This document shows positions 4,458 to 64,000 of a DNA stretch of 64,000 bases, piece by piece; within the stretch, counting starts at the first letter, position 1; each line of letters opens with the position of its first letter. Where the stretch lies: positions 22,201 to 86,200 of the IMG/VR virus record IMGVR_UViG_3300037471_001733; one strand, given 5' to 3'. Source of the stretch: a virus (lineage: Duplodnaviria; Heunggongvirae; Uroviricota; Caudoviricetes). Below the pieces are notes generated by a model. The model saw only the letters and a list, made by a program, of their open reading frames with translations. It did not search any database and was not told where the DNA came from. The position numbers and the translations under genes are program-made.

Positions 4458-5933
4458 TCAGGTTCTCTGGTAAGCGCCGCGGGTCCAGTTGCCAGCCACG
4501 CGCGGGACGCCATCCATGTCGATGTCGTACGGCGCCGCCAAGTCGATGCCGGCCGCAAAGCTGGCGGTGCTGGCGATGTGGTAATCGGCGCCGGCGTAGT
4601 TCTTGAAGATGGACGTCGGCACGCTGAAAATTGCGTTCGTTCCGGAGCCGCTGTAACTCGTGTTCGAAAACGCGTTATGCGACACCACTGAACCGCTTCC
4701 GGCCGTGATGGAGCCGCCGCTACCGATCCAGAGGTTGTTGCGCACGGTGTTGCCGCTGCCGTCCGGGAACTGGATGCCGGCGTTTCCTTCGAGGCCGCGG
4801 ATGAACGTGTTGTTGACGATCACGCAGCCAGTGCCGTTGCCGCCGTTGGTCGGGTTGCCCAGGAAGCCGATGGCGGCATCGCCGACATAGAACGTGTCGA
4901 AGACATTGCCGTACACGAAGATCGCGGGCTTGCGGCTCTGCGAGCGGTTGACGGCCACGGCGATGAGCGCGGTGCCGCCGAGCCCAGACTGGTAGCTGTT
5001 GCGCCAGACGTTGTGCCGAATGACGGTGTCGAACACCGAGAAATACACGTTGACGATTTCGCCGTGGTGCGTGCCGTTGCTCCACGCGTTCTCGCAGGCG
5101 TTGTATTCGATCACGCAGCCATCGGTCTGACGGATGAAGAAGACGTTGCTGCTGCGGTTTATGTAGTTGCGACTGAAGACGATTCCCGTACCCTGAATGT
5201 CGTTCGAGTCTGTATCGAACGTGTACGGCCGGTAGTTGCTGTCGGTCTGCGGGCCAATGCCGTAGCAGTAGCAGCGCGTGATGGTGACGTTGTTGACGGC
5301 TGTGCCGCCGAAGCGGATGTTCTGGCCGCGGGCGTTGCCGCCGGGGCCGGTGGTCGTTCCGTTGCCGCCGGACGTCGAGTGGTCGATGCGGATGCCGTAG
5401 CTGTCGCCGTCGAACCAGTTCAACTCGTTGCGCGTGCCGCCGTCAATGATCCAGTTGCTCGTGTTGATGGTGATCGGTTCGAGCTGGCTGGTGAAGTACG
5501 CCTGGCCGGTGCCGAAGGAATCTGACCAGCCCTGGTTGGTGCCGTGATCCGAGATAGTGGCCTTCTTGATCGTGATGTAGAGCGATCCGTTCGTGGCCGT
5601 GCTCAGCGTGCGCGTGGTGTAGGTACCAGACTTCAGGTAGTACGTGAATCCGCGCTGAAAATTGACTGTGCTCCAGGGCGCCACGTTGTTCCAGTCATCC
5701 CCGGATTGGTCACCAGAGGGCAGCGGACCAACGTACTTGGCATTCGTCGGCGCCTGCGCCTGCTGATCGATCTGCATTGACAGGCCGGCAGATAGAAGCC
5801 GCTGGTACCGCAATGCGAGGGAAAGCGGGCCCGACGCAATGGCGGACGCCGGCTGCGCAAACGACTCCGATGGTCGCTTGCGCTGCGGTCGCCCCATGCC
5901 GGCGCGCACTGCAATGGGCCTGCTGTACGCCAT
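4458..5933 (-). CDS. Right-handed parallel beta-helix (pectate-lyase-like) protein; putative depolymerase or spike
   Basis: 491 aa; repeated NNxFxxG...GIxF...GNTVRNNxW-type coils (NNTFIRGLEGNAGIQFPDGSGNTVRNNLWIGSGG; RHNVWRNSYQSGLGG) typical of beta-helix glycosidase or tailspike domains. Confidence 0.6.
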   Translation of the reverse strand: MAYSRPIAVRAGMGRPQRKRPSESFAQPASAIASGPLSLALRYQRLLSAGLSMQIDQQAQAPTNAKYVGPLPSGDQSGDDWNNVAPWSTVNFQRGFTYYLKSGTYTTRTLSTATNGSLYITIKKATISDHGTNQGWSDSFGTGQAYFTSQLEPITINTSNWIIDGGTRNELNWFDGDSYGIRIDHSTSGGNGTTTGPGGNARGQNIRFGGTAVNNVTITRCYCYGIGPQTDSNYRPYTFDTDSNDIQGTGIVFSRNYINRSSNVFFIRQTDGCVIEYNACENAWSNGTHHGEIVNVYFSVFDTVIRHNVWRNSYQSGLGGTALIAVAVNRSQSRKPAIFVYGNVFDTFYVGDAAIGFLGNPTNGGNGTGCVIVNNTFIRGLEGNAGIQFPDGSGNTVRNNLWIGSGGSITAGSGSVVSHNAFSNTSYSGSGTNAIFSVPTSIFKNYAGADYHIASTASFAAGIDLAAPYDIDMDGVPRVAGNWTRGAYQRT

Positions 5934-14552: not shown

Positions 14553-15449
14553 CTATAACCCCAACTGCAGTTGACCAAGAGACTTGCTTCCCTTGGACCG
14601 GTTGCACCCAAAGCACTCGCACTGCGTGTTGCTATAGCTGTGTGGACCTCCATCGCGCAGGCTGACAACGTGACCAAGCTCCGGTGCGCCCTCAATCCTC
14701 TTGCCCATCTTCGACCTCGGCGTCTTAATGCCGCAAATCTTGCAGCGCCAGCCGTCGCGCTCAAAGACAGACAGCTTGTCCACCTTCTCGTACTCGCAGC
14801 CGAACTTTCTGGCGCGACGCCGATGCGTGGTGCCGCTAGTGGCTCTGTAACGGTAGCTCAGCTGACAGGCTATCGAGCAGTACTTTTGGCGCAGGTCGCC
14901 ATAGTCCGGCGTGAACGCAACTTCGCAGAAGCCGCACTTGCGAGGCGACCGGTCGCGGCTACGCTCTTGCTTCTTCCGATTGTAAACCTTGCTCCTGCAT
15001 TTGCTGCTACAGAAGTTCGCATCCGGCATCTTGGCCATGAAGTCGCGCCCGCAGGACGGGCTGGCGCAGACCCTGGCATAGCGCAGCTTATTCTGGCCGC
15101 GCTCCTTTTTCTCCGGCGCTGGAACGCACTCATAGCAGAACTTGCGCGGCTTGCCGTTCTTAAATAGTGGCTTTGGGTGGCGGCAGCCGTTTTCATTCCG
15201 GGTCCTGCACTCGTCGGAGCAATGACTGCGGCGCAGCTTCGTCGGCTTGAAGGGCATTCCACAGTAGGCGCATAACCGCGGCGGTTTCGGAGGCACGGGC
15301 GGATTCTTCCGTGGTCGTCCAGCGCCAGGACGGCGGCCGCCAGAGTTTGGACGCGGGCCACCGCGCTTTGAACGCGACGCCTCGACCAGTGCGCATAGCG
15401 CGCCTTTGCAGCCGCCAACAGACAGCCGCCTATACTCGCCTTCAACCAT
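14553..15449 (-). CDS. HNH endonuclease with N-terminal Arg/Pro-rich multi-zinc-finger region
   Basis: 298 aa; many CxxC pairs, then C-terminal GWRCKICG...ELGHVVSLRDGGPHSYSNTQCECFGCNRSKG (HNH); RBS AGGAAG. Confidence 0.7.
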   Translation of the reverse strand: MVEGEYRRLSVGGCKGALCALVEASRSKRGGPRPNSGGRRPGAGRPRKNPPVPPKPPRLCAYCGMPFKPTKLRRSHCSDECRTRNENGCRHPKPLFKNGKPRKFCYECVPAPEKKERGQNKLRYARVCASPSCGRDFMAKMPDANFCSSKCRSKVYNRKKQERSRDRSPRKCGFCEVAFTPDYGDLRQKYCSIACQLSYRYRATSGTTHRRRARKFGCEYEKVDKLSVFERDGWRCKICGIKTPRSKMGKRIEGAPELGHVVSLRDGGPHSYSNTQCECFGCNRSKGSKSLGQLQLGL

Positions 15450-20340: not shown

Positions 20341-20453
20341 CCCCTTCCGGCGCACTCGCAAGGGTGCGCATTGCGATGCAGCCACGCGGAAGCATCGCAA
20401 TGCGCCAGCGCGCATAACGGCGCCGTCCCGGCTTGAGGCGGCAGGAGATTCAG

Positions 20454-22262
20454 ATGTCAGCACAAGACTTGATTGTTAGGATCAACGCAGCCGCCCAGGT
20501 GGCCCCGGAGCAACTGCCCAAAGGGGCGCAGCCGCGCGACCACATGATTGCCTTTGAGTACACCGACGCCCACGGCACGCGCGGCTGCATGCGCATCCTG
20601 AACACCCGGGCGCGGCTGCTGGCCTTCGCTGAGCAGGTGCGGAAGAACGCGGCAGCATTCGACGGCAAGCCGCGCAGCAAGCCCGCCGGGCCGCGCAAGA
20701 TTGCCGGCGCATCCCCGCTTTCCACGGCGCGCGCACTGCTCAAGGATGGCGCGCGGGTTGAAGCCCTCGCAGCGCTTGAGGCGCGCGGCGGGGAGGTGTT
20801 TTTCGGCGCCGCTGGCGTGCCTGTGCTGCATCAGGTTGCACAGCGCGTGGAGCACGAGGGCCGCCGCTGGGTTGTCACGCGCTGCGCCGTTGATGGTCTC
20901 ATCTACCTCATTCACGAGGCGTCCGGGCTGTCAGCAGGCGGCAAGGGCTTGCCTGAGATGCGCAGCATTGCGGATGCCCTGGCGCGGCTTGAGCTCGTGC
21001 ACCGGGACGAGGCGGAAAACGGCTACCGGCAGCGAATGATTGCTGCGATCGAGCAAGCGGCGGATTACGACCAGCAGGCGGCGCGCGCGGCTTTCGAGGC
21101 GTGCGATGGTCTCAAGAGCAAGGATGCCGCGCCGGTGGCTCAGGAAGCGTACCAGCAGGCGCGCGCGCTGTCGGCGGCGCAGGTGGCGCCCGATGTCGAG
21201 CCGGCAGTAGATGCAGACCCCTCCCCGGTGGAAAGCGAAGCCGAGGCGGCACCCCCTGTAGCGGAAACGCCTGCGGCAGCTGACACCCCTGCAGCGGAAA
21301 TCGAGTCCAGCGCGCCGGCGGTTGCGCCAGCATCCCCTCCGGCGGATTCACAGGCAGGCGCTGCACCCCCTGCGATGGAAAGCGCGCAGCCTGCGCCGCT
21401 TGCCACCGCGCCAGGCCGATCGGATGCGCTCATCGCGCGGGCCATCGCTTGGGTTGCCGTAGTCTGGGGAACCGCCAGCGTGCCGAGCGTTGCGGACTAC
21501 CGCGCCGGCCGGTGCGATGACACATTCCCGTGGGCGGGCGGCAGCCGCGCCGCCGGCTATCTGACATGGGCCGACCTCATTGGCGAGTGCATGGCCGCGC
21601 TGGAGCGCGACGACAGCGCCGACCAGGCGGCACGAGACGCCGCACTGCAACCACCGACCCCCATCCGTAGGAAAGGCCCGCGACAACATGAGCAGCACAC
21701 CCCATCCCGTGCAACCCGCAGTGCCAACCGGCCGCGAGTGGTGGACCCGCGGGCTGCTCGACTGGCACGCCGAGGCGCTGCACGCCGCCCAGGAGATCGC
21801 CGCGCTGCGCGAATCACTGGCTGCGGAGCGCGCAATGGTCCGCGAGCTGCAGGAGGCGCTCGCTGCCCGCCGGCAGGCCGCTTGACCCCTTCCCGGGGAA
21901 TCACGGCGCCACAAGCTTGCCGCCCCTGGCGCGACGCCAGCGAAACCCGAGACTGCACCCATAAAAACCTGGAGCACAGCATGACCTACACCGAAGCCAT
22001 CCAAGCCCTGCGCGACGCTATTGCGCAGGCCCCGAAGGGTGAAAAGCTGCAAGCCTTCCAAGCCAAGCGGGAGAAGATAATAGGGGCAATGCCCAAGGTG
22101 GAAATCTGTGGCGGCGAGCAGTGCATCCGCTATCCCAAGGGCTACCGCTTTGACTGCGGTCGCGAGGTCCACACGGACTGGATGTGGCAACCGTTTGCCA
22201 GCGAGGAAATCGCCATGCGGCCTGGCAACCTGCCGTACATCCTGCGCATGCCGGCTGCCTGA
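20454..22262 (+). CDS. Large ORF with acidic Pro/Ala-rich repeat linker; the 3' third is doubtful (possible frameshift or composite of two or three genes)
   Basis: No stop from 20454 to 22262, but 21650-21980 translates as Arg-rich low-complexity while another frame gives a coiled-coil ORF (21688-21885); a separate RBS plus ATG at 21981 starts a Cys-containing C-terminal domain. Confidence 0.35.
   Translation: MSAQDLIVRINAAAQVAPEQLPKGAQPRDHMIAFEYTDAHGTRGCMRILNTRARLLAFAEQVRKNAAAFDGKPRSKPAGPRKIAGASPLSTARALLKDGARVEALAALEARGGEVFFGAAGVPVLHQVAQRVEHEGRRWVVTRCAVDGLIYLIHEASGLSAGGKGLPEMRSIADALARLELVHRDEAENGYRQRMIAAIEQAADYDQQAARAAFEACDGLKSKDAAPVAQEAYQQARALSAAQVAPDVEPAVDADPSPVESEAEAAPPVAETPAAADTPAAEIESSAPAVAPASPPADSQAGAAPPAMESAQPAPLATAPGRSDALIARAIAWVAVVWGTASVPSVADYRAGRCDDTFPWAGGSRAAGYLTWADLIGECMAALERDDSADQAARDAALQPPTPIRRKGPRQHEQHTPSRATRSANRPRVVDPRAARLARRGAARRPGDRRAARITGCGARNGPRAAGGARCPPAGRLTPSRGITAPQACRPWRDASETRDCTHKNLEHSMTYTEAIQALRDAIAQAPKGEKLQAFQAKREKIIGAMPKVEICGGEQCIRYPKGYRFDCGREVHTDWMWQPFASEEIAMRPGNLPYILRMPAA
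21688..21885 (+). CDS. Alternative-frame 65-aa coiled-coil ORF inside the large ORF
   Basis: RBS AGGAAAGG; MSSTPHPVQPAVPTGREWWTRGLLDWHAEALHAAQEIAALRESLAAERAMVRELQEALAARRQAA. Confidence 0.3.
   Translation: MSSTPHPVQPAVPTGREWWTRGLLDWHAEALHAAQEIAALRESLAAERAMVRELQEALAARRQAA
21981..22262 (+). CDS. Possible independent 93-aa Cys-containing protein (same frame as the large ORF)
   Basis: RBS TGGAG 6 nt before the ATG; CGGEQC...DCGREVH. Confidence 0.35.
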   Translation: MTYTEAIQALRDAIAQAPKGEKLQAFQAKREKIIGAMPKVEICGGEQCIRYPKGYRFDCGREVHTDWMWQPFASEEIAMRPGNLPYILRMPAA

Positions 22263-44286: not shown

Positions 44287-44610
44287 TTACACCGGCTCCG
44301 TTGCATCTGCGGGCACAGCAGATGCGCCTTGGCCATCAGTCCAAATCTCTTTCCCGTCGTCAGGATGCAAATGGAATCGCGTGACCTTGCCGCCGGTATT
44401 CCGCTCAATCAGTACAGACAATTTCGGGTTGCTGGGACTCAGCCCGTACATGACGTTGCGGAGGCGACCGAGGGAGACACCACAGCTGGCAGCGAACTCT
44501 TTCCTAGCTTTCGCGTTGGGCAAAGCTTTGACGAAGTCGTACAGCGGGGTGATGTACAGACTGCGGTCGCGTCCATTGACCTTCGTAGCGGTGTAGGTTC
44601 CGGTGCACAT
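44287..44610 (-). CDS. Cro-like / YdaS-family HTH regulator (first gene of the leftward early operon)
   Basis: Start chosen at MCTGTY; ALPNAKARKEFAASCGVSLGRLRNVMYG is HTH-like; its start sits at the centre of a 34-bp palindrome. Confidence 0.5.
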   Translation of the reverse strand: MCTGTYTATKVNGRDRSLYITPLYDFVKALPNAKARKEFAASCGVSLGRLRNVMYGLSPSNPKLSVLIERNTGGKVTRFHLHPDDGKEIWTDGQGASAVPADATEPV

Positions 44611-44685
44611 AACACCGAATCCTACACTGATGAATGCATACCTAGCAAACACCGTTCGTGGCCTGCCGCGCAGTCCACTACTGGT

Positions 44686-45180
44686 GTGAGTGACGACCGC
44701 TTAATCCGTATCAGCAATCTGCGCAGGGTGTGCGCCGAGCGCAGGCTCAAGACCGCCGATCTACACCGGCTCCTGCCCTATGCCCGCTACACCTACTGGC
44801 GTGACGTACTGGAGGGCGACAAGCCCTTTGGAGAGAAGGCAGCGCGCAAGGTAGAAGCCAAGCTCGGCCTGCCCGACCGGTGGCTGGACACGCCGCGGGA
44901 CCCTGTTGAGTTCCGCGAGGTGTTACCCAGCGTGCCCGACGACGACGAAGACGAGCACCCAGATGAAGGGGGCCATGAATCGCACTGGCGCCACATCGCG
45001 GAGCTGTTTGCCGATATCTGCACGGAGCAGGACATCAAGATGCTGCCGTCCACCTTCTTGCTGATCGTTGATGCCGGCGTCCAGCGCGTGAATGAAGCGG
45101 CCGACAAGCGCAAGGCTTCCGAGGTTTTCAGCAAGCTTCTTCGCGTACTACAGCACGGCAAAGACCAAAATAGGGGCTAA
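44686..45180 (+). CDS. CI-like HTH repressor candidate (GTG start; no S24 peptidase domain)
   Basis: VSDDRLIRISNLRRVCAERRLKTADLHRLLPYARYTYWRDVLEGDKPFGEKAARKVEAKLGLP is HTH-like; divergent from the Cro-like gene; upstream part of the track ORF overlaps the Cro-like gene. Confidence 0.45.
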   Translation: MSDDRLIRISNLRRVCAERRLKTADLHRLLPYARYTYWRDVLEGDKPFGEKAARKVEAKLGLPDRWLDTPRDPVEFREVLPSVPDDDEDEHPDEGGHESHWRHIAELFADICTEQDIKMLPSTFLLIVDAGVQRVNEAADKRKASEVFSKLLRVLQHGKDQNRG

Positions 45181-46404: not shown

Positions 46405-46769
46405 ACGGCGCACATCTGACTAGCCAGCGGGCCATCAATGGGCCGTCGAAGCCGACAGCCGATGCTCCTGAAGGCGGCGACTACGCCATCGTTGTTGACG
46501 GACAGATCATCGCTGAGGTGTTCTACCGGTCATCGCCCACGCACACGCATGACGCGTGCGCCACTGCCCGCCTGTTCTCTGCCGCGCAGGACCTTCTGGA
46601 CGCCCTGCAAGACCTCCTGCGCGCCAACACCGAGGCGGCGAACTTCTCGATGAGCATGGTCACCGACCGCGAGGAGTTCGATGGCTTCCTGCGCGAGTGC
46701 GAGGCCAAGGTGGATGCGGCTGAGACGAAGGCTCGGGCTGCGATTGCAAAAGCGACTGGAGGCGTGTGA
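46401..46769 (+). CDS. Hypothetical protein; paralog of 38724-39125
   Basis: 122 aa; C-terminal ARAAIAKATGGV. Confidence 0.45.
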   Translation: MNGAHLTSQRAINGPSKPTADAPEGGDYAIVVDGQIIAEVFYRSSPTHTHDACATARLFSAAQDLLDALQDLLRANTEAANFSMSMVTDREEFDGFLRECEAKVDAAETKARAAIAKATGGV

Positions 46770-47251
46770 TGCGCGGCGTGTTTGCCGACCTGCGTGACCG
46801 AGTGTTTGGCCGCCTGGTAGTTGTGGACATGCATGACAAGCTGCCCACCGGCCAAGTGCTGTGGCTGTGCCTGTGCGAGTGCGGTGAAACGAAGGCTGTT
46901 CAGAGCGGCCACTTGACAAGCGGCCGCATCAGTTCCTGCGGCTGCCTGAAGCGCGAGAGTCAGCCTGCGCACCTGTGGACCGCCGAGAACATCGCCAAGT
47001 CCAGTGCTGCCCGCCTGACCAAGCGCGCAGCACGCTTTGAGCAGGCCCGCCGCCGTGTATGGGGGCTTCTCACTCCTGTTGAGAGCATCGACCGCCAAGG
47101 TGAGGAGTTCTGGCGTTGCGCGTGTGTGTGTGGTGGAGAAAGAACTGCCTGGGCAGCCGACATACGCCGCGGCAAGACCATCTCTTGCGGCTGCAGTCGG
47201 CGTGGCTTGTCCTACGGCAAGGCTCATGACGGAGTCGCGACATGCGCGTGA
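46766..47251 (+). CDS. Zinc-binding protein with duplicated CxCxCG...SCGC motif
   Basis: CLCECGETKAVQSGHLTSGRISSCGC and CACVCGGERTAWAADIRRGKTISCGC. Confidence 0.45.
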   Translation: MMRGVFADLRDRVFGRLVVVDMHDKLPTGQVLWLCLCECGETKAVQSGHLTSGRISSCGCLKRESQPAHLWTAENIAKSSAARLTKRAARFEQARRRVWGLLTPVESIDRQGEEFWRCACVCGGERTAWAADIRRGKTISCGCSRRGLSYGKAHDGVATCA

Positions 47252-50366: not shown

Positions 50367-50432
50367 CCATCTAACTGATCCATGCCCGGCGCGGGCTGCG
50401 CGCCAATTCCACAGAAGACGGAGACGGAAACC

Positions 50433-51374
50433 ATGACTACTGCACTCGCTCTCATGAGCAACCGCCTGGCGCAACGCTTCGGCATGGTCGAAGACGCCGA
50501 GTTGATTCCTGTGCTCAAGGCAACTGCGTTCAAAGGTCAGGTCAGTGACGCGCAGATGACGGCGCTGCTGATCGTTGCCGATCAATACGGCCTGAATCCG
50601 TGGACCAAGGAAATCTACGCTTTCCCAGACCCGCAGAACGGCATCGTGCCGGTGGTCAGCGTTGACGGCTGGAGCCGCATCATCAATGAGCACCCCGCCT
50701 TCGACGGCATTGAGTTCGAGTTGTCCGGCAAGGGCGATGACATGGAGATGCTGTGCCGCATCTTCCGCAAGGACCGCAGCCGCCCGATCGCAGTGACGGA
50801 GTACTTGACCGAGTGCAAGCGTGAAACGAAGCCTTGGAAGTCTCACCCGCGACGCATGCTGCGTCACAAGGCTGAGATCCAATGCGCCCGATTGGCCTTC
50901 GGCTTCGCTGGGCTCCACGACCACGACGAGGCGGAGCGCATTGTGGAAGCATCGTCTGGCGCACCGAAGAACATGGGGGCAGCCCAGGTGGTCGAGGCCG
51001 CCGCAGCTGCGGAAATGCCGCTCGGCCTGCTGGAGTCAGCCGAGAGCGCTGCGACCGAAGGGGTGGCCATCTATCAGGAATTCTGGAAGTCAACCGGCCC
51101 GGAAAACCGCAAGGCGCTGGCTGGCCACCATGCGCGGCTGAAGCAAGCAGCCATTGACGCCGACGCGGCGCGCACGGTGGAGATGCCCACGACCGGCGGC
51201 CAAGCCGAGCAGCCCACGCTGGACCTGGTGGCGCTGGAGCGGCGCATCGGCAGCTGCAACGACGCTCAGGTGTTGCTGCTCATTGCCGACGACGTGGCCA
51301 CGCTGCCCGAGGGTGAGGATCGCGCGCGGCTGGAGAAGTTGATCGCGGTGCGCGGCGAAGCGCTGGAGGGCTGA
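50433..51374 (+). CDS. recT: RecT-family single-strand annealing protein
   Basis: LNPWTKEIYAFPDPQNGIVPVVSVDGWSRIINEHPAFDGIEFE...MLRHKAEIQCARLAFGF; RBS GGAGACGG. Confidence 0.8.
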   Translation: MTTALALMSNRLAQRFGMVEDAELIPVLKATAFKGQVSDAQMTALLIVADQYGLNPWTKEIYAFPDPQNGIVPVVSVDGWSRIINEHPAFDGIEFELSGKGDDMEMLCRIFRKDRSRPIAVTEYLTECKRETKPWKSHPRRMLRHKAEIQCARLAFGFAGLHDHDEAERIVEASSGAPKNMGAAQVVEAAAAAEMPLGLLESAESAATEGVAIYQEFWKSTGPENRKALAGHHARLKQAAIDADAARTVEMPTTGGQAEQPTLDLVALERRIGSCNDAQVLLLIADDVATLPEGEDRARLEKLIAVRGEALEG

Positions 51375-51377
51375 TCT

Positions 51378-52064
51378 ATGGCGCTAATCGTCCACACCGA
51401 CCCGCAGGGTAGTGAGGCGTGGCTCGCGGCACGCCGCGGCATCCCGACCGGCAGCCGTTTCAAGGATTGCCGTGACTACCTAAAGCCCACGGCAGCCGAG
51501 GTCAAGGCCGGCGCCACGCGCGGCAAGCCCTCCGCGAAGCTGCTGGGCTATGCGATGGATCTGGCGCGCGAGCGGGTCGGTGGCCATGTGCCTCCCGTGT
51601 TCCAGACCGCCGCGATGCGTACCGGCCATATCGAGGAGCCAAAAGCACGACTCGCCTACGAGGAAGAGACCGGCAACATCGTGATCGAAGCCGGCTTCAT
51701 CACGACGGAAGACCGGCGCTGGGGCGTGTCGGTGGACGGCCTCGTGAAGCCCAAGGGTGGAATCGAGGTGAAGACTATGGTGAGCAGCGCCACGCTGTTC
51801 AAGGCCGTGGTCGAAGGCGACATCAGTGAGTACATCGACCAGATCAACGGCGCGATCCTGCTGCTTGAACTGGACTGGCTCGACCTTGTGCTCTGGGCGC
51901 CCGACCTGGCGCACCTGGGGCGCGGGCTCACCATCCGCCGCATCTGGCGTGACGAAGCTGCGATCCGAGCACTGGAAGCGGACCTGCTGACCTTCGTGGC
52001 GCTGGTCAATGACTTCGAGGCCGCGCTGCGTGCGCCGGCAGTGGAAACCGAAGGAGCCTTCTGA
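51378..52064 (+). CDS. YqaJ-like PD-(D/E)XK exonuclease (RecE/lambda-exo partner of RecT)
   Basis: HTDPQGSEAWLAARRGIPTGSRFKD N-terminal motif; immediately downstream of recT. Confidence 0.75.
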   Translation: MALIVHTDPQGSEAWLAARRGIPTGSRFKDCRDYLKPTAAEVKAGATRGKPSAKLLGYAMDLARERVGGHVPPVFQTAAMRTGHIEEPKARLAYEEETGNIVIEAGFITTEDRRWGVSVDGLVKPKGGIEVKTMVSSATLFKAVVEGDISEYIDQINGAILLLELDWLDLVLWAPDLAHLGRGLTIRRIWRDEAAIRALEADLLTFVALVNDFEAALRAPAVETEGAF

Positions 52065-52321
52065 TGGCAATCGACAAGTCCCTGCGCGGCGGCCAGTTCG
52101 AGACCGTCTACAGGAAGGACACGATTTCGCTCGAATGGGTGCAGCCGGGTCCAGACAGGAAGTCGCTAGTGCTCGCAACCGTCGATACGCAATTGTGCGA
52201 CGAAGATTTTGCGCTTGAGCAGGCGTTTGCGGAGTTTCAGCGGCACCTGATGTCTTCGTTCCTCAAGCACAGGCTGGGCTTTGTCTCGGTTAGGCCGGGA
52301 GACGGGCCGGACACGCACTAG
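52064..52321 (+). CDS. Hypothetical protein
   Basis: 85 aa; ATGA overlap. Confidence 0.4.
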   Translation: MAIDKSLRGGQFETVYRKDTISLEWVQPGPDRKSLVLATVDTQLCDEDFALEQAFAEFQRHLMSSFLKHRLGFVSVRPGDGPDTH

Positions 52322-52341
52322 ACACTTTTCGGGCGATCCCA

Positions 52342-52397
52342 GCGTGATGAGCTTTTTCCAATCTTCGTCTCCTCCCTAGCGGGCTTGCTCATCACGC
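52342..52397 (+). promoter_or_regulatory. Perfect 11-bp inverted repeat (stable RNA hairpin) upstream of the 7-deazaguanine genes
   Basis: GCGTGATGAGC-N34-GCTCATCACGC. Confidence 0.35.
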
Positions 52398-52607
52398 GCA
52401 GCTTCGGCTGCCGCCTTTCTTCTTTCTGCGGCGAACAACAGCACGACGGGGTCTGCTTCCTCCCTGTACTCCTCCTTACCCGTCGTGCGGCGGCGTGTGC
52501 TGCCAGCCGCTCTTTCTTTTGATGGCAACTGCGAAAACCCCGGGGCTACGAGCGCGGCCAGCAGAGCCGCGCCGCCAGCCCCACCAACCAACTACAGCGA
52601 GATTCAC

Positions 52608-53357
52608 GTGATCCACTACCACGGACTGCCGATTACGCCGGACACGGCAGCAGAGCGTGCTATTGCTGGCGGCCATGCGTTTGTGTCATTCGCGCACCCT
52701 GAGCAATTGGGTCTCGCTGCGGCTGTGGCGCAATCATTCGCCATTGATAACGGCGCGTTCTCGGCTTGGCGGGCCGGCCGTCCGGTAACGGACTGGACGC
52801 CTTTCTACGAATGGGCTGCCGCAGCCAAGCGCATCCCTGGCTGCGACTTCGCCGTCATACCTGATGTCATTGACGGCACTGAGGCTGACAACGATGCGTT
52901 GCTTGCCGAGTGGCCGCTGCCCAACTGGTTCGGGGCGCCCGTGTGGCACATGAACGAGGGCCTGGATCGCCTGGAGCGCTTGGCCACCGTCTTCCCTCGC
53001 GTGTGCATCGGCAGTTCTGGCGAGTTCGCAATGGTGGGAACGCCGACGTGGTGGGGCCAGATCGCCCGCGCCATGCGTGTTGTGTGCGACGACGATGGGC
53101 GCCCGATGTGCAGGCTCCATGGCCTGCGCATGCTGGACCCGGAAGTGTTCAAGCATCTCCCGTTTTCCAGCGCAGACAGCACGAATATCGGCCGCAACAT
53201 TGGCATCGATCAAGCTTGGCGCGGCACCTATACGCCGCCGACGAAAGAGGCGCGGGCAGCTGTCATGCGCTCGCGCATTGAGGCTGAGAACGCGCCAGCA
53301 CGCTGGGCGTTTCGCATCCCCGAGTTCCATCCTGAAGACCAAGGGAGCCTGCTGTGA
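52608..53357 (+). CDS. Candidate DpdA-family (TGT-like) DNA-guanine transglycosylase; start uncertain (GTG 52608; track ORF from 52485)
   Basis: Call rests on context: directly precedes and overlaps queC-queE-queD. N-terminal HYHGLPITP is reminiscent of the TGT HGxxxTP motif. No family-level motif verified. Confidence 0.4.
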   Translation: MIHYHGLPITPDTAAERAIAGGHAFVSFAHPEQLGLAAAVAQSFAIDNGAFSAWRAGRPVTDWTPFYEWAAAAKRIPGCDFAVIPDVIDGTEADNDALLAEWPLPNWFGAPVWHMNEGLDRLERLATVFPRVCIGSSGEFAMVGTPTWWGQIARAMRVVCDDDGRPMCRLHGLRMLDPEVFKHLPFSSADSTNIGRNIGIDQAWRGTYTPPTKEARAAVMRSRIEAENAPARWAFRIPEFHPEDQGSLL

Positions 53358-53890
53358 GCAAAGTTATCCTGTTGTCCGGCGGCCTGGATTCCGCCCTGTG
53401 CTTGGCTCGCTACGGCGCCGACTTGGCCATTGGCTTCAATTACGGACAGCCGCATGCGATTGAGTTGGCCCATGCCGAGCGCATTGCAAGGCAGCACGGC
53501 GTGCCTTTCGAGATCCATGCGCTGCCGACCATGCCGCGCGTCAACGACGTCGTCTTCGCCGGCCGCAATGCGGTGATGCTGACGGCAGCCGCAGCCATTG
53601 CTCAGGCGCGCGGCCACGACGCGGTGTTGATCGGCTGCAACTTCTCGGATGCCACCCGGTTTCCTGACTGCCGGCCGGAATTCATTCGCAACATCAGCAA
53701 GGCGCTTGAGTCGGCATATGGCGTAAGCGTCTGCGCGCCGCTGCTGTTGTCCACCAAGACGCAGATAGTGGCAGAGGCCAAGCAACGCGGCATCACGGAC
53801 ACCTGGACCTGTTACGCGCCCACAACTGATGGTCAGCAGTGCGGCCAGTGCTACTCCTGCCAGGGCATCGCCTCAGCGAGCGCGTCATGA
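53354..53890 (+). CDS. queC: 7-cyano-7-deazaguanine synthase QueC
   Basis: PP-loop VILLSGGLDSALCL; C-terminal CGQCYSCQ zinc site; GTG start overlapping the upstream stop. Confidence 0.85.
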   Translation: MSKVILLSGGLDSALCLARYGADLAIGFNYGQPHAIELAHAERIARQHGVPFEIHALPTMPRVNDVVFAGRNAVMLTAAAAIAQARGHDAVLIGCNFSDATRFPDCRPEFIRNISKALESAYGVSVCAPLLLSTKTQIVAEAKQRGITDTWTCYAPTTDGQQCGQCYSCQGIASASAS

Positions 53891-54507
53891 CCTATACCGT
53901 CAAGGAGATCTTCTACACGCTGCAGGGCGAGGGCTTGCACGCCGGGCGCCCAGCGGTGTTCTGCCGCTTCGCCGGGTGCAACCTGTGGAGCGGGCGTGAG
54001 CAGGACAGGAGCAAGGCGGCATGCCGTTTCTGCGACACCGAGTTCCGCGGCGGCACGAAGTACCGCACGCCCGAGGATTTGGCTGATGCCATTGAGCAGG
54101 CGTGGGCGCCGCAGGTGGTGGCCCGACGCATGGTGGTGCTCACCGGCGGCGAGCCGGCGCTGCAGGTGGATCAGGCGCTTGTGCACTTGCTGCAGGCCCG
54201 CGGGTTCTATGTCGCCATCGAGACGAACGGCACCAAGGAACTGCCGCAGGGTCTGGATTGGGTGTGCGTGAGCCCCAAGGGCGATGAGCCGCTGCGTGTG
54301 GTGCATGGCAACGAGCTGAAGCTGGTGTACCCGCAGATGCTGGCACTGCCGCAGCGGTTTGAGGAGTTGGCCTTCGACCACTTCCTTCTGCAGCCCATGG
54401 ACGGCCCGTTCCTTGAGGCCAACACCCAGGCTGCCATCGAGTTCTGCATGGGCAACCCAAAGTGGCGGCTCTCGGTGCAGACCCACAAGTACATCGGAGT
54501 GCGCTGA
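53887..54507 (+). CDS. queE: 7-carboxy-7-deazaguanine synthase QueE (radical SAM)
   Basis: FCRFAGCNLWSGREQDRSKAACRFCDT cluster; ATGA overlap with queC. Confidence 0.85.
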   Translation: MTYTVKEIFYTLQGEGLHAGRPAVFCRFAGCNLWSGREQDRSKAACRFCDTEFRGGTKYRTPEDLADAIEQAWAPQVVARRMVVLTGGEPALQVDQALVHLLQARGFYVAIETNGTKELPQGLDWVCVSPKGDEPLRVVHGNELKLVYPQMLALPQRFEELAFDHFLLQPMDGPFLEANTQAAIEFCMGNPKWRLSVQTHKYIGVR

Positions 54508-54509
54508 CC

Positions 54510-54965
54510 ATGCCCACCACCATCATGAAACGCCTGGAGTTCGACGCCGGGCACCGCATCCCCAACCACGCCAGCAAGTGCCGCAACCTGCACGGCCACA
54601 GGTACGCGCTGGAAATCACGCTGGTGGGCGAGCCCATCGACGCCCCCGGCACCAGCAGCCACGGGATGCTGGAGGACTTCAGCGACGTGAAGCGCTTGGC
54701 GATGGAGCACCTCGTGGAGCCCTGGGACCACGCTTTCCTGGTGTACGAGGGCGACACGCAGGTGCTGGCGCTGCTGGCCGCGCTGCCCGGCCACAAGACC
54801 GTGGTGCTGCCGCGCGTGCCCACGGCCGAGAACCTCGTGGCGCTGGCCTTTGAAACGCTGGCGCCGATCTACACCGACCGCTTCGGCAACGGGCTGCGCC
54901 TGGAGCGCGTGCGCCTGTGGGAAACGCCGACGTGCTGGGCGGACTTCAGTTCCACAACCAACTGA
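54510..54965 (+). CDS. queD: 6-carboxy-5,6,7,8-tetrahydropterin synthase QueD
   Basis: RLEFDAGHRIPNHASKCRNLHGHRY is typical of the QueD/PTPS family. Confidence 0.8.
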   Translation: MPTTIMKRLEFDAGHRIPNHASKCRNLHGHRYALEITLVGEPIDAPGTSSHGMLEDFSDVKRLAMEHLVEPWDHAFLVYEGDTQVLALLAALPGHKTVVLPRVPTAENLVALAFETLAPIYTDRFGNGLRLERVRLWETPTCWADFSSTTN

Positions 54966-54973
54966 CGAGCACC

Positions 54974-56038
54974 ATGTTCAAAAACTTGACCTTGTTGCGC
55001 ATCAGCAGCGACTGGCTGCCCGATGCCATCGCTGCCGAGGACCAGCTGGCGCGCGAGCCCTTCACCGCCTGCGGTGCGACACAACCCGCGAGTGCTGGCT
55101 GGGTGCCGCCGCGAGGTGTGCCGCATGCGCCGCTGCTGGAGGTCATCGGCGGCCATTGGATTCTGTCGTTGATGTCAGAGCGCCGGCTGCTGCCCGGATC
55201 TGTCATCAAGGACCGCGTTGCCGAGATGACTGCCGAGTTCGAGAAGGCCAACGGCTACAAGGTCGGCAAGCGCCAGCGCAAGGAACTGGTGGCGCAGGCC
55301 GAGCAGGAGTTGCTGCCGAAGGCATTCACGAAACGCTCGCTGACCAAGGTGTGGCTCGACCCCCGCGCCCGCCTCCTAGCGGTCGACACCGGCAGCGCCA
55401 GCGCGGCCGAGTCTGTGGTTTCGATGCTGGTCAAGAGCCTGGACGGCTTTGGTGTGCAGCCTGTGACGACTTGGCTGGCGCCGGCCGGCGCGATGGCGGC
55501 TTGGATCAGCGAAGGCTGCGCGCCAAGCGGCTTCAGCCTGGACCGCGAGTGCGAGCTCAAGTCCACGGACGAGATGAAGAGCGTCGTCCGCTACGCCCGC
55601 CACTCGCTGGACAACGATGACGTGCGCCGCCACATCGCATCCGGCAAGCGCCCGACGCGCCTGGCGCTGTCCTGGGGCGACCGCGTGGCGTTCACCTTGA
55701 CCGATGGGCTTGTGCTCAAGCGCATCGAGTTTCTTGACGTCGCCATGGAAGGCCGCTCCGAAGTGGACGCGGCAGAGGCCTTTGACGCTGATGCTGCTAT
55801 CGCCTGCGGCGAGCTCAGCCGCCTGATACCGGATCTGCTGGCGGCGCTTGGTAACGAGGCTGAGCAGTCGCGCATCCACGAGGAAGAATCCAGCCCCAAG
55901 GCTGCGCTACAGGACCCCGCAGTGCCGAATTTGGACCACATCAGTACATCAGCGCTCTACTTGGCAGCGCAGGTGGAGCAGCAGATGGCTCCGATACGCG
56001 CGGCCCTGTCCGAGACTGCAGGAGCCGCCAAGGCATGA
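54974..56038 (+). CDS. rdgC: Recombination-associated protein RdgC
   Basis: MFKNLTLLRISSDWLPDAIAAEDQLAREPFTACGATQPASAGWVPP parallels the RdgC N-terminus. Confidence 0.7.
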   Translation: MFKNLTLLRISSDWLPDAIAAEDQLAREPFTACGATQPASAGWVPPRGVPHAPLLEVIGGHWILSLMSERRLLPGSVIKDRVAEMTAEFEKANGYKVGKRQRKELVAQAEQELLPKAFTKRSLTKVWLDPRARLLAVDTGSASAAESVVSMLVKSLDGFGVQPVTTWLAPAGAMAAWISEGCAPSGFSLDRECELKSTDEMKSVVRYARHSLDNDDVRRHIASGKRPTRLALSWGDRVAFTLTDGLVLKRIEFLDVAMEGRSEVDAAEAFDADAAIACGELSRLIPDLLAALGNEAEQSRIHEEESSPKAALQDPAVPNLDHISTSALYLAAQVEQQMAPIRAALSETAGAAKA

Positions 56039-56616
56039 GCCTGCACATCGTCCCGATCACGCTTGAGCAGGCCAAGAGGTTCGTGCGCCGGCACCACCGC
56101 CACAACAAGCCGCCCACGGGCTGGAAGTTCGGCGTGGGCCTGTGCCACAGCGCCGGGCCGCTAGTGGGAGTGGCGACCGCTGGGCGCCCGGTGTCGCGCG
56201 AGATCCAGGAGCGCGAGCCGCTGACGCTGGAGGTCAACCGCACGTGCACGGACGGCACGCGCAACGCCAACTCGATGCTCTACGGCGCGATCTGGCGCGC
56301 GGCCAAGGCCCTGGGCTACACGCGCGCCATCACCTACATCCAAGGCAACGAGACGGGCGCCTCGCTCAAGGCTGCGGGCTGGGTGAAGGTGCGCGACCTA
56401 GATGCGCGCGGCTCCTGGAAGGAGTCGAGCAAGAAGTTGGCGCACCTGCGCGACGACGAGGGCACGGGCGGCGTGGCGCGGCAGCTGTGGGAAATCCGCG
56501 CTGCGACCGCCGGCCCAGTGGTGCTGCCCGACCTGGGCGCCGACGACGATCTGACAGACGACACAGAAGACCCCACGGGCGACTTGTTCGCCGAAGCTGA
56601 AGGAGAGCCCGCATGA
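56035..56616 (+). CDS. Hypothetical protein with acidic C-terminal tail
   Basis: 193 aa; no family recognised. Confidence 0.45.
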   Translation: MSLHIVPITLEQAKRFVRRHHRHNKPPTGWKFGVGLCHSAGPLVGVATAGRPVSREIQEREPLTLEVNRTCTDGTRNANSMLYGAIWRAAKALGYTRAITYIQGNETGASLKAAGWVKVRDLDARGSWKESSKKLAHLRDDEGTGGVARQLWEIRAATAGPVVLPDLGADDDLTDDTEDPTGDLFAEAEGEPA

Positions 56617-62239: not shown

Positions 62240-62425
62240 ATGTTCTGGAATGCACTTCTGCTAGTAGTGTTCTGCGTCGCGCTGCCGATTTTCGCTGGCA
62301 TGCTGAGAGAGGGAGCATCCCCGAAAGAGCTTGGCCAATTCGTGACCTCGCAATGGGGCATGACCATCTTCTTCCCGATTGGGATGGTCCTGTTCGTGAT
62401 TTGGCTGCTTGAGTACAGGCCTTGA
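62240..62425 (+). CDS. Small two-TM membrane protein
   Basis: 61 aa. Confidence 0.4.
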   Translation: MFWNALLLVVFCVALPIFAGMLREGASPKELGQFVTSQWGMTIFFPIGMVLFVIWLLEYRP

Positions 62426-62555
62426 GTGCACCGACCACCGGCTGGCCGCCGCCCGCGCTGGCGCAGGACGACTGCTTTGAGCTTTTCCGGTGGTTCGCGT
62501 CCAAGCCTGACGCGCGGCGGCTGGTGCGCGAGCACTGCGCGCGCATCGCTGCGAA

Positions 62556-62957
62556 TCAGGGGCGCGCCTTGCGCTCAATGTCCTCAGCCGTTTCCGGCCG
62601 GCGCGCGATCCAGCCCTGCGGCTCGTCGTGCTCGCTGACAGTGGGTTTCGCGGGCAGGGATTCGCCCGGGGCGGTTGGGGCCGGCATCCAGTGCGTGACG
62701 TTGAACATTTCATAGCCGCAGCTCATCCACTGGCCGTCGATGTAGAGGCCCAGCAGCTTGCGCGTCGGGTTGCGCAGGTCGGGCGAATAGAAGATCACGT
62801 CCTCGCGGTCCACCGGCAGCCGCTCGCTGACCGGAATCCAAGGTTCCGGCTGCGTCTGCGGGGCGGCGGCCAGCACGCTTTCCGCCCAATCCAGCAGCTT
62901 CAGTTCGTCCGCGTAGAACAGTTCGACGGACAGCTTCGGAAGCGTCGGTGTAGTCAT
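62556..62957 (-). CDS. DUF551-like phage protein
   Basis: GLYIDGQWMSCGYEMFNVTHWMPAPTAP. Confidence 0.5.
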   Translation of the reverse strand: MTTPTLPKLSVELFYADELKLLDWAESVLAAAPQTQPEPWIPVSERLPVDREDVIFYSPDLRNPTRKLLGLYIDGQWMSCGYEMFNVTHWMPAPTAPGESLPAKPTVSEHDEPQGWIARRPETAEDIERKARP

Positions 62958-62986
62958 TGGTACTCCAGAAAATCAGATTCGTGGGC

Positions 62987-63484
62987 TTATCTGATGGTTA
63001 TTTCCGCGCTTTTCAGCATGGCGCGCAGTTCTTCAACCTCGATCCGGCAGGTTTGCTCCGGCGGTCGGCCTTGCCCGGTTTCTCTGAAGTGAATGGCGCT
63101 CTCCATAGCGGTGAGGCACCGTTGAGCAAGGTCGTGCCAGCCTTGCGGCTCCGGCTGCGCCTGCGGGGCGGCGGCCAGGATTGCGATGGCGGCCTCCACC
63201 CGGTCGTCGGGGTACTGGGTGGTGTCACGCAGCTTGGCCTCCGCTTCCAGCGCACGGCGCTTCCAGTCCAGCAAATCCTCCCGGGCGCCTTCGTAGGCGT
63301 CGCGGAAGTCGTTGGGCTGCGCCTGCGGGGCGGCGTCCTCCAGTTCCCGTAGCGCCGAAATCATCGCGGCGCGGGCCTCGTTGGTGGCGGCGTCGGACCA
63401 CGCGCCGGCATTGCCTGCCCGCCACTTGGCTTCAGCGTAGGTGTCCAGCAGGGCAATCAGCTTGTTGGTGGTGGGTCGGTTCAT
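62987..63484 (-). CDS. Hypothetical protein sharing a LAAAPQAQPEP repeat with 62556-62957
   Basis: 165 aa; the DNA 27-mer GGCTGCGCCTGCGGGGCGGCGGCCAG occurs three times across the two genes. Confidence 0.45.
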   Translation of the reverse strand: MNRPTTNKLIALLDTYAEAKWRAGNAGAWSDAATNEARAAMISALRELEDAAPQAQPNDFRDAYEGAREDLLDWKRRALEAEAKLRDTTQYPDDRVEAAIAILAAAPQAQPEPQGWHDLAQRCLTAMESAIHFRETGQGRPPEQTCRIEVEELRAMLKSAEITIR

Positions 63485-63559
63485 GGTTCGTAATCCAGAT
63501 AATTTGACGTAGGGCTAGGGTAGTTAAGGACCTCTTATCTCAAATAAGAAAAATCGTGT

Positions 63560-64000
63560 TCAAGTCGGGAAGGCGGTGTGCTCCACGCCATCCAGCAGGC
63601 GGCCGGCGGCCTTCTTGCCAACGTGGATTGCCGTGTCGCCGTCAGGCAGCGAGCGGCAGCGCACGGTCGGCCCGTAGACCTGGGCCAGCCGCTGCACTTC
63701 GCTCGCATCGCTGCCAGCACCCAGCCATTCTCCCCACTGCTTGAACAGGAACGGCACGCCGGCAGCTGCGCATTGGTCGCGCAGATCTCGGGCCCACTGC
63801 AGGTGCATCGGCCGCGCCTTCGGGCCGCTCTCGCCGCCGACGATGACCCAGCTGATGAGCGACAGCATCGCGGCGCTGGCACCGCTCTCCCCCCAGGGGC
63901 GCACTGTCCGCCGCAGGTCTACCGGTCCCAGCAGAGGCTCCATGGACAGGAACCGCACGCGCGCTGGCGTGGCCAGCAGCTTCGGCGCGTCGCGGTCGGC
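63560..64000 (-). CDS. Phage Gp37/Gp68-family protein (partial; N-terminus beyond the window)
   Basis: EPLLGPVDL...WVIVGGESGPKARPMHLQWARDLRDQCAAAGVPFLFKQWG. Confidence 0.6.
   Translation of the reverse strand, partial: ADRDAPKLLATPARVRFLSMEPLLGPVDLRRTVRPWGESGASAAMLSLISWVIVGGESGPKARPMHLQWARDLRDQCAAAGVPFLFKQWGEWLGAGSDASEVQRLAQVYGPTVRCRSLPDGDTAIHVGKKAAGRLLDGVEHTAFPT

Follow-up and report, generated by a model that had tools for sequence, protein, structure and literature searches.

The stretch of viral DNA analysed here, referred to below as the window, comprises 64,000 nucleotides of a Caudoviricetes record (IMG/VR IMGVR_UViG_3300037471_001733, positions 22,201 to 86,200), and our subject is a four-gene operon on its plus strand with the makings of a 7-deazaguanine DNA modification system. 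The operon opens with a dpdA-like gene (52608-53357, GTG start, 249 aa), whose predicted product is a minimal, zinc-less DNA-guanine transglycosylase with the fold of the tRNA-guanine transglycosylases (TGT). It is followed by a short form of queC (53354-53890, GTG start, 178 aa), by queE (53887-54507, ATG start), for a 7-carboxy-7-deazaguanine synthase of the Cx14CxxC radical S-adenosylmethionine (radical-SAM) type, and by queD (54510-54965, ATG start, 151 aa), for a 6-carboxytetrahydropterin synthase. An original prediction, made from the letters alone, had placed these reading frames and their motifs at the same positions, and they are found there in the translations. It had also stated that every start overlaps the preceding stop. 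Read in the DNA, this is so between dpdA and queC (GTGA), where the frame of about 250 aa directly 5' of queC indeed overlaps it by 4 nt, and between queC and queE (ATGA, again a 4-nt overlap), but not between queE and queD, where TGA-CC-ATG leaves a 2-nt spacer and a GGAG lies 9 nt upstream of the queD ATG. An alternative GTG start for queD at 54462, which would create a 46-nt overlap with queE, was rejected, as the Pfam match begins near the ATG at 54510 with its upstream GGAG. The packing continues downstream, with an 8-nt spacer between queD and rdgC and a 4-nt ATGA overlap between rdgC and a Mom-like gene, and all junctions from dpdA through the Mom-like gene are 4-nt overlaps or spacers of 2-8 nt. 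Because these junctions are so compact, translational coupling across the operon is probable.

The start of the dpdA-like gene deserves comment, since the mechanically called frame is longer (52485-53357, 290 aa). Among the 119 best homologues, the window's own gene call aside, nearly all are 249 aa long (range 246-254), those inspected begin at the position of MIHYHG, and the query is covered only from MIHYHG onward. The 290-aa version was therefore rejected, and GTG 52608 is the best start because homologue lengths and starts agree with it. Directly upstream lies a non-coding gap of 286 nt (52322-52607) in an operon that is otherwise gap-free; it holds a weak terminator-like hairpin (52398-52411) and an antisense frame of 71 aa (52376-52591), and has no Rfam match. 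A scan for promoters and terminators gave nothing exceeding shuffled expectation, and an Rfam scan of 44-64 kb, covering preQ1 and other riboswitches, found no element.

From a weak N-terminal hint, the original prediction saw in the first frame a candidate TGT paralogue of the DpdA type, and four independent lines of evidence bear this out. The protein matches PHROG 887, 'queuine tRNA-ribosyltransferase', at 1.2e-68, and tblastn against phage genomes returned 105 records, among them Acinetobacter phage AB3P2 (60% identity), BTP1 and SPN3UB (54%), Pseudomonas phage Epa33 (51%), Pantoea phage MED16 (39%) and Salmonella phage 7-11 (32%). Aligned by hhalign, a family of 57 sequences pairs with Rosebush DpdA at 95.7% probability (E 1e-8, 163 columns), matching DNGAFS with DSGAFS, PDVIDG with LDVIGD, VWH with TVH, LHG with FHG and SADST with SVDSS. 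Whether the protein has a TGT/TIM-barrel fold, the point on which the original prediction had staked itself, was addressed by structure prediction and profile comparison, and both indicate that it does: the AlphaFold model is a (beta/alpha)8 barrel (predicted local distance difference test, pLDDT, 94.3; predicted template modelling score, pTM, 0.91), and many of its matches below E 1e-4 among the viral models of BFVD are phage 'queuine tRNA-ribosyltransferases'. Across 57 diverse family members D47 and D190 never vary, and at least 90% keep D86 and H114; in the model all four sit at the C-terminal ends of barrel strands or shortly beyond them, each aligns with the corresponding residue of Rosebush DpdA, and their order and spacing fit the active-site positions D95, D130, H181 and D256 of bacterial DpdA (PMC10164549). 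By alignment, D190 would be the nucleophile and D47 the general acid/base, with D86 and H114 binding the base. The family alignment contains no conserved cysteine and no CxC motif, so that the zinc site CXCX2CX22H does not occur, and at 249 aa, against 413 aa for bacterial DpdA (PDB 7UI4), the protein is missing the large beta8/alpha8 insertion. Because zinc motif and large insertion are both missing, we place it in the phage DpdA family, broadly understood, and not with bacterial DpdA or TGT proper.

The last two enzymes are readily identified, as the original prediction had them. QueE carries the radical-SAM motif CNLWSGREQDRSKAACRFC (Cx14CxxC) and exceeds the curated equivalog cut-off of its Cx14CxxC subtype by a wide interval (TIGR04508, 7.3e-95, 316.7 bits against 240), with a further match to PHROG 2076 (8.4e-32). 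QueD contains HRIPNHASKCRNLHGHRY, with CxxxHGH in the form KCRNLHGH, and is a clear member of the Pfam PTPS family (1.2e-29, 103.1 bits, cut-off 22.4); its TIGR03367 score of 87.8 bits falls 1.5 bits under the 89.25 cut-off.

QueC, called unambiguous in the original prediction on the strength of its PP-loop LLSGGLDS, does give a strong Pfam match (1.8e-38, 132.6 bits, gathering score 22), but it is an atypical short form. Aligned with 2PG3, 3BL5 and Rosebush QueC, it lacks, in one clean block, about 20 residues immediately ahead of the RN motif. According to Libby et al. 2026 (PMC13329287), the canonical motifs of the family are SGGxDS, YxQxHxxE, (VP)xRN, YPDC, a conserved K and C(x)8CxxCxxC, the first Cys being followed by a Y. 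Judged by alignment, the short QueC retains every motif that they define or find essential: SGGLDS is conserved, Y30-G-Q-P-H-A-I-E37, F-A-G-R71-N72, F103-P-D-C (as FPDCR) and K135 are kept, and the zinc motif CY-x8-CGQCYSC is present as C153-Y154...C163-G-Q-C166-Y-S-C169, with x9 rather than x8. The one change from Y to F puts F103 at the position of Y131, and Y131F in Escherichia coli QueC retains partial activity (PMC13329287). Linkage to queD and queE is described in the same paper as the hallmark of biosynthetic QueC, and such a neighbourhood is found here, where queE overlaps the queC stop and queD follows. The AlphaFold2 model of the short protein has a pLDDT of 91.4, and its sole soft spot, residues 61-70, is the deletion site. 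The same segment of about 20 residues before the RN motif is missing in Cap9 (PDB 9NTO) and present in 2PG3, 3BL5 and Rosebush QueC. A database search with the short QueC gave 1850 matches, the best 120 of which are mostly 171-180 aa long, and the short form makes up a family of its own; with its profile, canonical QueC structures reach 112 and 108 bits and Cap9 reaches 74 bits. The closest protein among sequenced phage isolates is only 36.5% identical, i.e. no close relative, and the sections consulted of the 2026 QueC family survey make no mention of such a subtype (PMC13329287).

With queC, queE and queD the operon encodes three of the four enzymes needed to make a 7-deazaguanine substrate. 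The original prediction had noted the lack of folE, queF and an amidotransferase gene, and this was borne out within the sequence covered: tblastn with phage FolE over all 64 kb gave a best E of 0.32 and no gene, and no homologue of QueF, ArcS, Gat or QueF-L occurs among the operon frames scanned with Pfam or PHROGs. It is a reasonable inference that the GTP cyclohydrolase of the host supplies the dihydroneopterin triphosphate (H2NTP), because FolE serves folate synthesis too.

By direct sequence similarity, the window DpdA belongs to a clade that has been described as that of phages without preQ0 (7-cyano-7-deazaguanine) genes, the 'singleton' phages (Hutinet et al. 2019, PMC6884629; Šimoliūnienė et al. 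2021, PMC8306585). The two members that have been analysed contain dADG (the deoxynucleoside of 7-amido-7-deazaguanine, ADG), phage 7-11 at 0.02% of G and MED16 at 0.13% (PMC6884629, PMC8306585). Singleton DpdA is the rule in this clade as surveyed in reference genomes, where queC and queE are both missing within 8 kb of dpdA in all 31 loci with DpdA at 53-80% identity (from Achromobacter, Pseudomonas, Variovorax, Acinetobacter, Comamonas and others). The nearest relatives from metagenomes differ among themselves: one (DpdA 78% identical) has nothing related following dpdA, which lies beside ERF/YqaJ genes and an integrase, another (81%) is followed by a YhhQ/Vut_1 transporter, and a third (80%) by an unknown protein of 523 aa. 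The gene for the latter recurs in two loci (L170, 2462-4033; L171, 2021-3592), in each case beside an 80% identical DpdA whose stop its start overlaps; it matches no Pfam family, in L170 a Lar gene, for restriction alleviation, is found a few genes further downstream, and it could be another DpdA-linked function.

A search from the other side complements this picture of the clade. Relatives of the short QueC at 40% identity or more almost always adjoin a DpdA of this clade, and the two genes are adjacent in 14 independent metagenomic or viral loci. Of these, L038, L042, L043, L045-L047, L122 and L136 have the order DpdA, QueC and YhhQ-type transporter, L037, L044, L126 and L127, like the window, combine DpdA and QueC with QueE and/or QueD, with FolE as well in L127, and L123 is too short a locus to reveal a third gene. 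Counting relatives of DpdA and/or short QueC, a Vut_1/YhhQ-type gene, of the queuosine-precursor transporter family, frequently takes the place of queE/queD, namely in the transporter-bearing loci just given and in L039, L124, L159 and L169. One would not expect short QueC to be kept beside such a transporter if preQ0 itself were what is imported. The combination of DpdA, short QueC and queE/queD is absent from sequenced phage isolates, yet not unique in nature.

7-Deazaguanine DNA modification is an established phage counter-defence. The reading that we favour, to which we give a probability of roughly 0.75, is a post-replicative exchange of G for a 7-deazaguanine in the phage DNA, the base being made by QueD, QueE and QueC out of H2NTP that the host provides. 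After induction or infection, transcription of the early-left (recombination) arm of a lambdoid temperate phage would express the operon. Dihydroneopterin triphosphate from host GTP cyclohydrolase I would be converted by phage QueD to 6-carboxytetrahydropterin and this by phage QueE to 7-carboxy-7-deazaguanine (CDG), which the short QueC, with ATP and ammonia, would turn into the amide ADG and then into preQ0. The 249-aa DpdA would swap guanines in the replicated double-stranded phage DNA for the 7-deazaguanine by a double displacement of the TGT type, and the packaged genome, with dPreQ0 and possibly partly or wholly dADG, would hinder restriction in the next host. The clade is tied to DNA modification because its members 7-11 and MED16 carry dADG. 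We infer dPreQ0 as the product; the measured phages with dpdA and queCDE and no amidotransferase, Rosebush and CAjan, carry it, with 28% of G replaced in Rosebush (PMC6884629). What we describe is a known type of anti-restriction DNA modification system, here with an unusual mix of gene subtypes.

Several observations weigh against this mechanism. Bacterial DpdA binds DNA with its zinc subdomain and its large insertion (PMC10164549), and the window protein has neither. The latter also has no match in Pfam, NCBIfam or PADLOC; its 57-sequence HMMER profile, searched against all PDB sequences, recovered no solved TGT or DpdA, just coiled-coil noise, as did phmmer with the single protein, and its family profile gave no match by hhalign to the single sequence of E. 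coli Tgt. A Foldseek search of the model against the PDB was uninformative and is not used. QueC scores 118.9 bits with TIGR00364, under the 150.3 cut-off, and has 178 aa where canonical QueC has about 220, with about 20 canonical residues missing. Characterised members of the DpdA clade modify just 0.02-0.13% of G, and with dADG, not dPreQ0 (PMC6884629, PMC8306585), and the modification in MED16 gave no detectable restriction protection (PMC8306585). Finally, the window contains no recognisable host gene, so that the host folE is out of view.

The same machinery might operate with ADG as the main base in the DNA, a possible but rather unlikely variant. The short QueC could halt at the amide, the DpdA of this clade could prefer ADG, or dPreQ0 could be hydrated afterwards. 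The sole two phages of the clade that have been analysed, 7-11 and MED16, hold dADG and almost no dPreQ0 (PMC6884629, PMC8306585), but they encode no QueC of their own and for that reason say nothing about the window QueC. The deletion before the RN motif is shared with Cap9, which belongs to the QueC family and takes its reaction no further than an amide bond (bioRxiv 10.1101/2025.04.06.647259; PMC13329287), but the family profile favours canonical QueC structures over Cap9, and the window QueC has all the catalytic motifs on which preQ0 formation depends (Y30, R71, C153-Y154, and F103 in place of Y131; PMC13329287). The retention of short QueC beside a YhhQ-type precursor transporter, odd if imported preQ0 is the substrate, speaks for ADG; the dPreQ0 measured in Rosebush and CAjan, which have dpdA and queCDE and no amidotransferase, speaks against it (PMC6884629).

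A doubtful extension of this idea is that the 249-aa zinc-less DpdA and the minimal QueC of about 175 aa form a co-evolving two-enzyme unit, distinct from classical DpdA1 with canonical QueC. By analogy with Cap9 chemistry, the short QueC would hand DpdA another base, e.g. ADG, by stopping at the amide. If true, this would explain the link of the clade to dADG as well as the QueC kept beside the YhhQ-type transporter. On the phage side, the two could also be the kin of Cap9 and Cap10 in type IV cyclic oligonucleotide-based antiphage signalling systems (CBASS). It is very improbable that the likeness extends to function, with the zinc-less TGT-like protein and the minimal QueC placing a 7-deazaguanine on a protein N-terminus (deazaguanylation), as Cap10 and Cap9 do, for phage regulation or counter-defence rather than for DNA modification. 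A type IV CBASS itself was rejected: no CD-NTase, Cap11 or effector occurs among the operon and neighbouring frames scanned with Pfam, PHROGs and PADLOC.

We find it hardly credible that these are auxiliary metabolic genes by which an infecting phage alters or boosts host tRNA queuosine, the TGT-like protein then having tRNA as its substrate. In favour of this, the four proteins all have their ancestry in the queuosine/archaeosine pathway of tRNA, and PHROG and GenBank annotators label DpdA homologues 'queuine tRNA-ribosyltransferase'. Against it, the protein has neither the zinc subdomain nor the insertions by which bacterial and archaeal TGTs bind the tRNA anticodon arm (PMC10164549), the DpdA of phage 9g modifies DNA and fails to complement an E. 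coli tgt deletion (PMC6884629), no queF, queA or queG is there to finish queuosine, and the gene is surrounded by genes for the recombination and the modification of DNA. The reading as a bacterial Dpd system was likewise rejected, there being no DpdB or DpdC, no zinc site, and no PADLOC match for seven operon proteins.

The surroundings of the operon are those of a recombination arm, as the original prediction had it, and its recT, yqaJ and rdgC are recovered by Pfam and PHROG matches. From 50.4 to 56.6 kb the plus strand carries a single closely packed run of genes, from recT through the Mom-like gene: a RecT-like annealase (50382-51374; Pfam RecT 1.3e-25, PHROG 252 2e-81), a YqaJ-type exonuclease (51378-52064; Pfam YqaJ 6.2e-11, PHROG 149 1.6e-25), a small frame of 85 aa between yqaJ and the dpdA-like gene (52064-52321), the modification operon, rdgC (54974-56038; RdgC 1.9e-97) and a Mom-like gene of the XF1762 family (56035-56616; NF045478 184.3 bits, cut-off 50; PHROG 1384 6.5e-37). 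The last of these, a GNAT protein, is coupled by ATGA both to rdgC upstream and to the next frame downstream. PHROG 1384 is named 'Mom-like DNA modification protein', the Pfam Mom score of 23.2 lies under the 27.1 cut-off, and unannotated proteins with 62-63% identity to it occur in the temperate phages ZF40, Kapi1 and TL-2011a. This gene may add to DpdA a second function in DNA modification.

On a larger scale the genes of the window are laid out as in a lambdoid temperate phage, the modification genes falling in a pL-like recombination arm. A minus-strand Cro-like frame (44287-44652) and a plus-strand, CI-like frame containing a helix-turn-helix (HTH; within 44329-45180, no Pfam match), both taken from the frame list and a reading of the sequence, form a divergent pair that is putatively the immunity region (44287-45180) and the apparent start of the plus-strand early operon; a dip in GC content at 44-46 kb covers it. 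A replication initiator and a DnaC-like loader lie on the minus strand at 40.8-42.7 kb, and the large terminase, portal, protease and major head protein, also on the minus strand, at 7.8-13.5 kb. The description of the cluster as prophage-borne thus stands as regards the lambdoid layout, but integration is left unproven, because the 64-kb window holds no integrase, attachment (att) site or host gene; no tRNA was found in it either, and tblastn with three tyrosine integrases from related loci located no integrase. Close relatives of the dpdA region adjoin integrases in bacterial chromosomes. Integration as a prophage is plausible, as the contig that the window comes from measures some 120 kb, and the window may stop short of the ends of the element. 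Queried by blastn and megablast with the cluster and with a 49-kb part of the window, 50,697 phage genomes gave short patches only and no related genome.

Some other features of the window are recorded here. The coding strand flips at about 62.3-62.5 kb, and minus-strand frames there contain two domains known from phages, DUF551 (62556-62957) and a fragment of DUF5131 (63560-63958). At the end of a lambdoid left arm one would look for an integrase, but none is seen, and the region 62300-64000 may be the edge of a second element. Three long frames without a Pfam or PHROG match have a coding-like GC content at third codon positions: 20433-22262 (plus strand, 609 aa), 1554-3239 (minus, 561 aa) and 4458-5933 (minus, 491 aa), the first of them in a local GC peak of 0.69, after which comes a trough of 0.58 at 22-24 kb. 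Ten further long frames of the window gave no Pfam match. Of two HNH endonuclease genes, one (14553-15449, minus strand) is found right past the terminase genes, as is typical where HNH and terminase genes go together, and the other (46766-47251, plus strand) in the early-left operon.

Among known systems, the dPreQ0 clusters of Mycobacterium phage Rosebush and Escherichia phage CAjan, with DpdA1 and QueC/QueD/QueE/FolE (Hutinet et al. 2019, PMC6884629), are close in gene content. In Rosebush the order is dpdA-queC-queD-queE-folE and, as in the window, dpdA overlaps queC in a single operon without amidotransferase or queF. However, Rosebush has folE and the window does not, its DpdA and QueC are larger (385 and 235 aa, against 249 and 178 aa), QueC identity is 34% and there is no BLAST-level similarity between the DpdA proteins. 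Its cluster also sits beside the terminase in a lytic-type genome, unlike that of the window. Pseudomonas phage iggy, which is Queuovirinae-like and carries dPreQ0 at GA motifs (PMC10484667), shares with the window a phage dPreQ0 system, a high-GC proteobacterial host background and the same proposed anti-restriction function, but it is lytic, has a DpdA of the DpdA1 type, is absent among the DpdA tblastn matches listed and has no nucleotide similarity to the window. 7-Deazaguanine DNA is also the target of newly found modification-dependent defences, e.g. GrwAB (PMC12137116).

The bacterial Dpd system of Salmonella Montevideo (PDB 7UI4, PMC10164549) has the zinc site CXCX2CX22H and the beta8/alpha8 insertion, both missing in the window protein, and its DpdA has as neighbours the ATPase DpdB, DpdC and dpdD-K, none of which lies by the window gene; the neighbours here are recT, yqaJ, rdgC and the Mom-like gene, and the setting is one of phage counter-defence, not of host defence. 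Type IV CBASS, with its TGT-like Cap10 and QueC-like Cap9, differs in that the window has queE and queD and no CD-NTase (the protein modified at its N-terminus in that system), Cap11 or effector (bioRxiv 10.1101/2025.04.06.647259; PMC13329287), in that the DpdA clade of the window is associated with modified DNA in two phages, and in that the window QueC stands nearer to canonical QueC than to Cap9 (112 vs 74 bits).

The DpdA itself has counterparts in the gamma-proteobacterial singleton phages 7-11, vB_PagS_MED16, BTP1, SPN3UB, SfI, HK106 and AB3P2 (PMC6884629, PMC8306585), which have, like the window, a DpdA of about 250 aa in the early or recombination region of temperate phages. Genes for preQ0 synthesis are missing from these phages, which presumably rely on their hosts for it, whereas the window adds queC, queE and queD. 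Being a 'singleton' is thus not a property of the clade, as the same DpdA clade also occurs with its own precursor supply. That supply is graded, from none to a YhhQ-type transporter, QueC with a transporter, QueC with QueE and QueD, and the same with FolE, a modular series in which the window stands near the self-sufficient end and which amounts to a natural experiment on what limits the modification level in this clade. The short QueC subtype, as a regular partner of DpdA, likewise bears on whether the segment that it is missing, and that Rosebush QueC possesses, is needed for nitrile formation.

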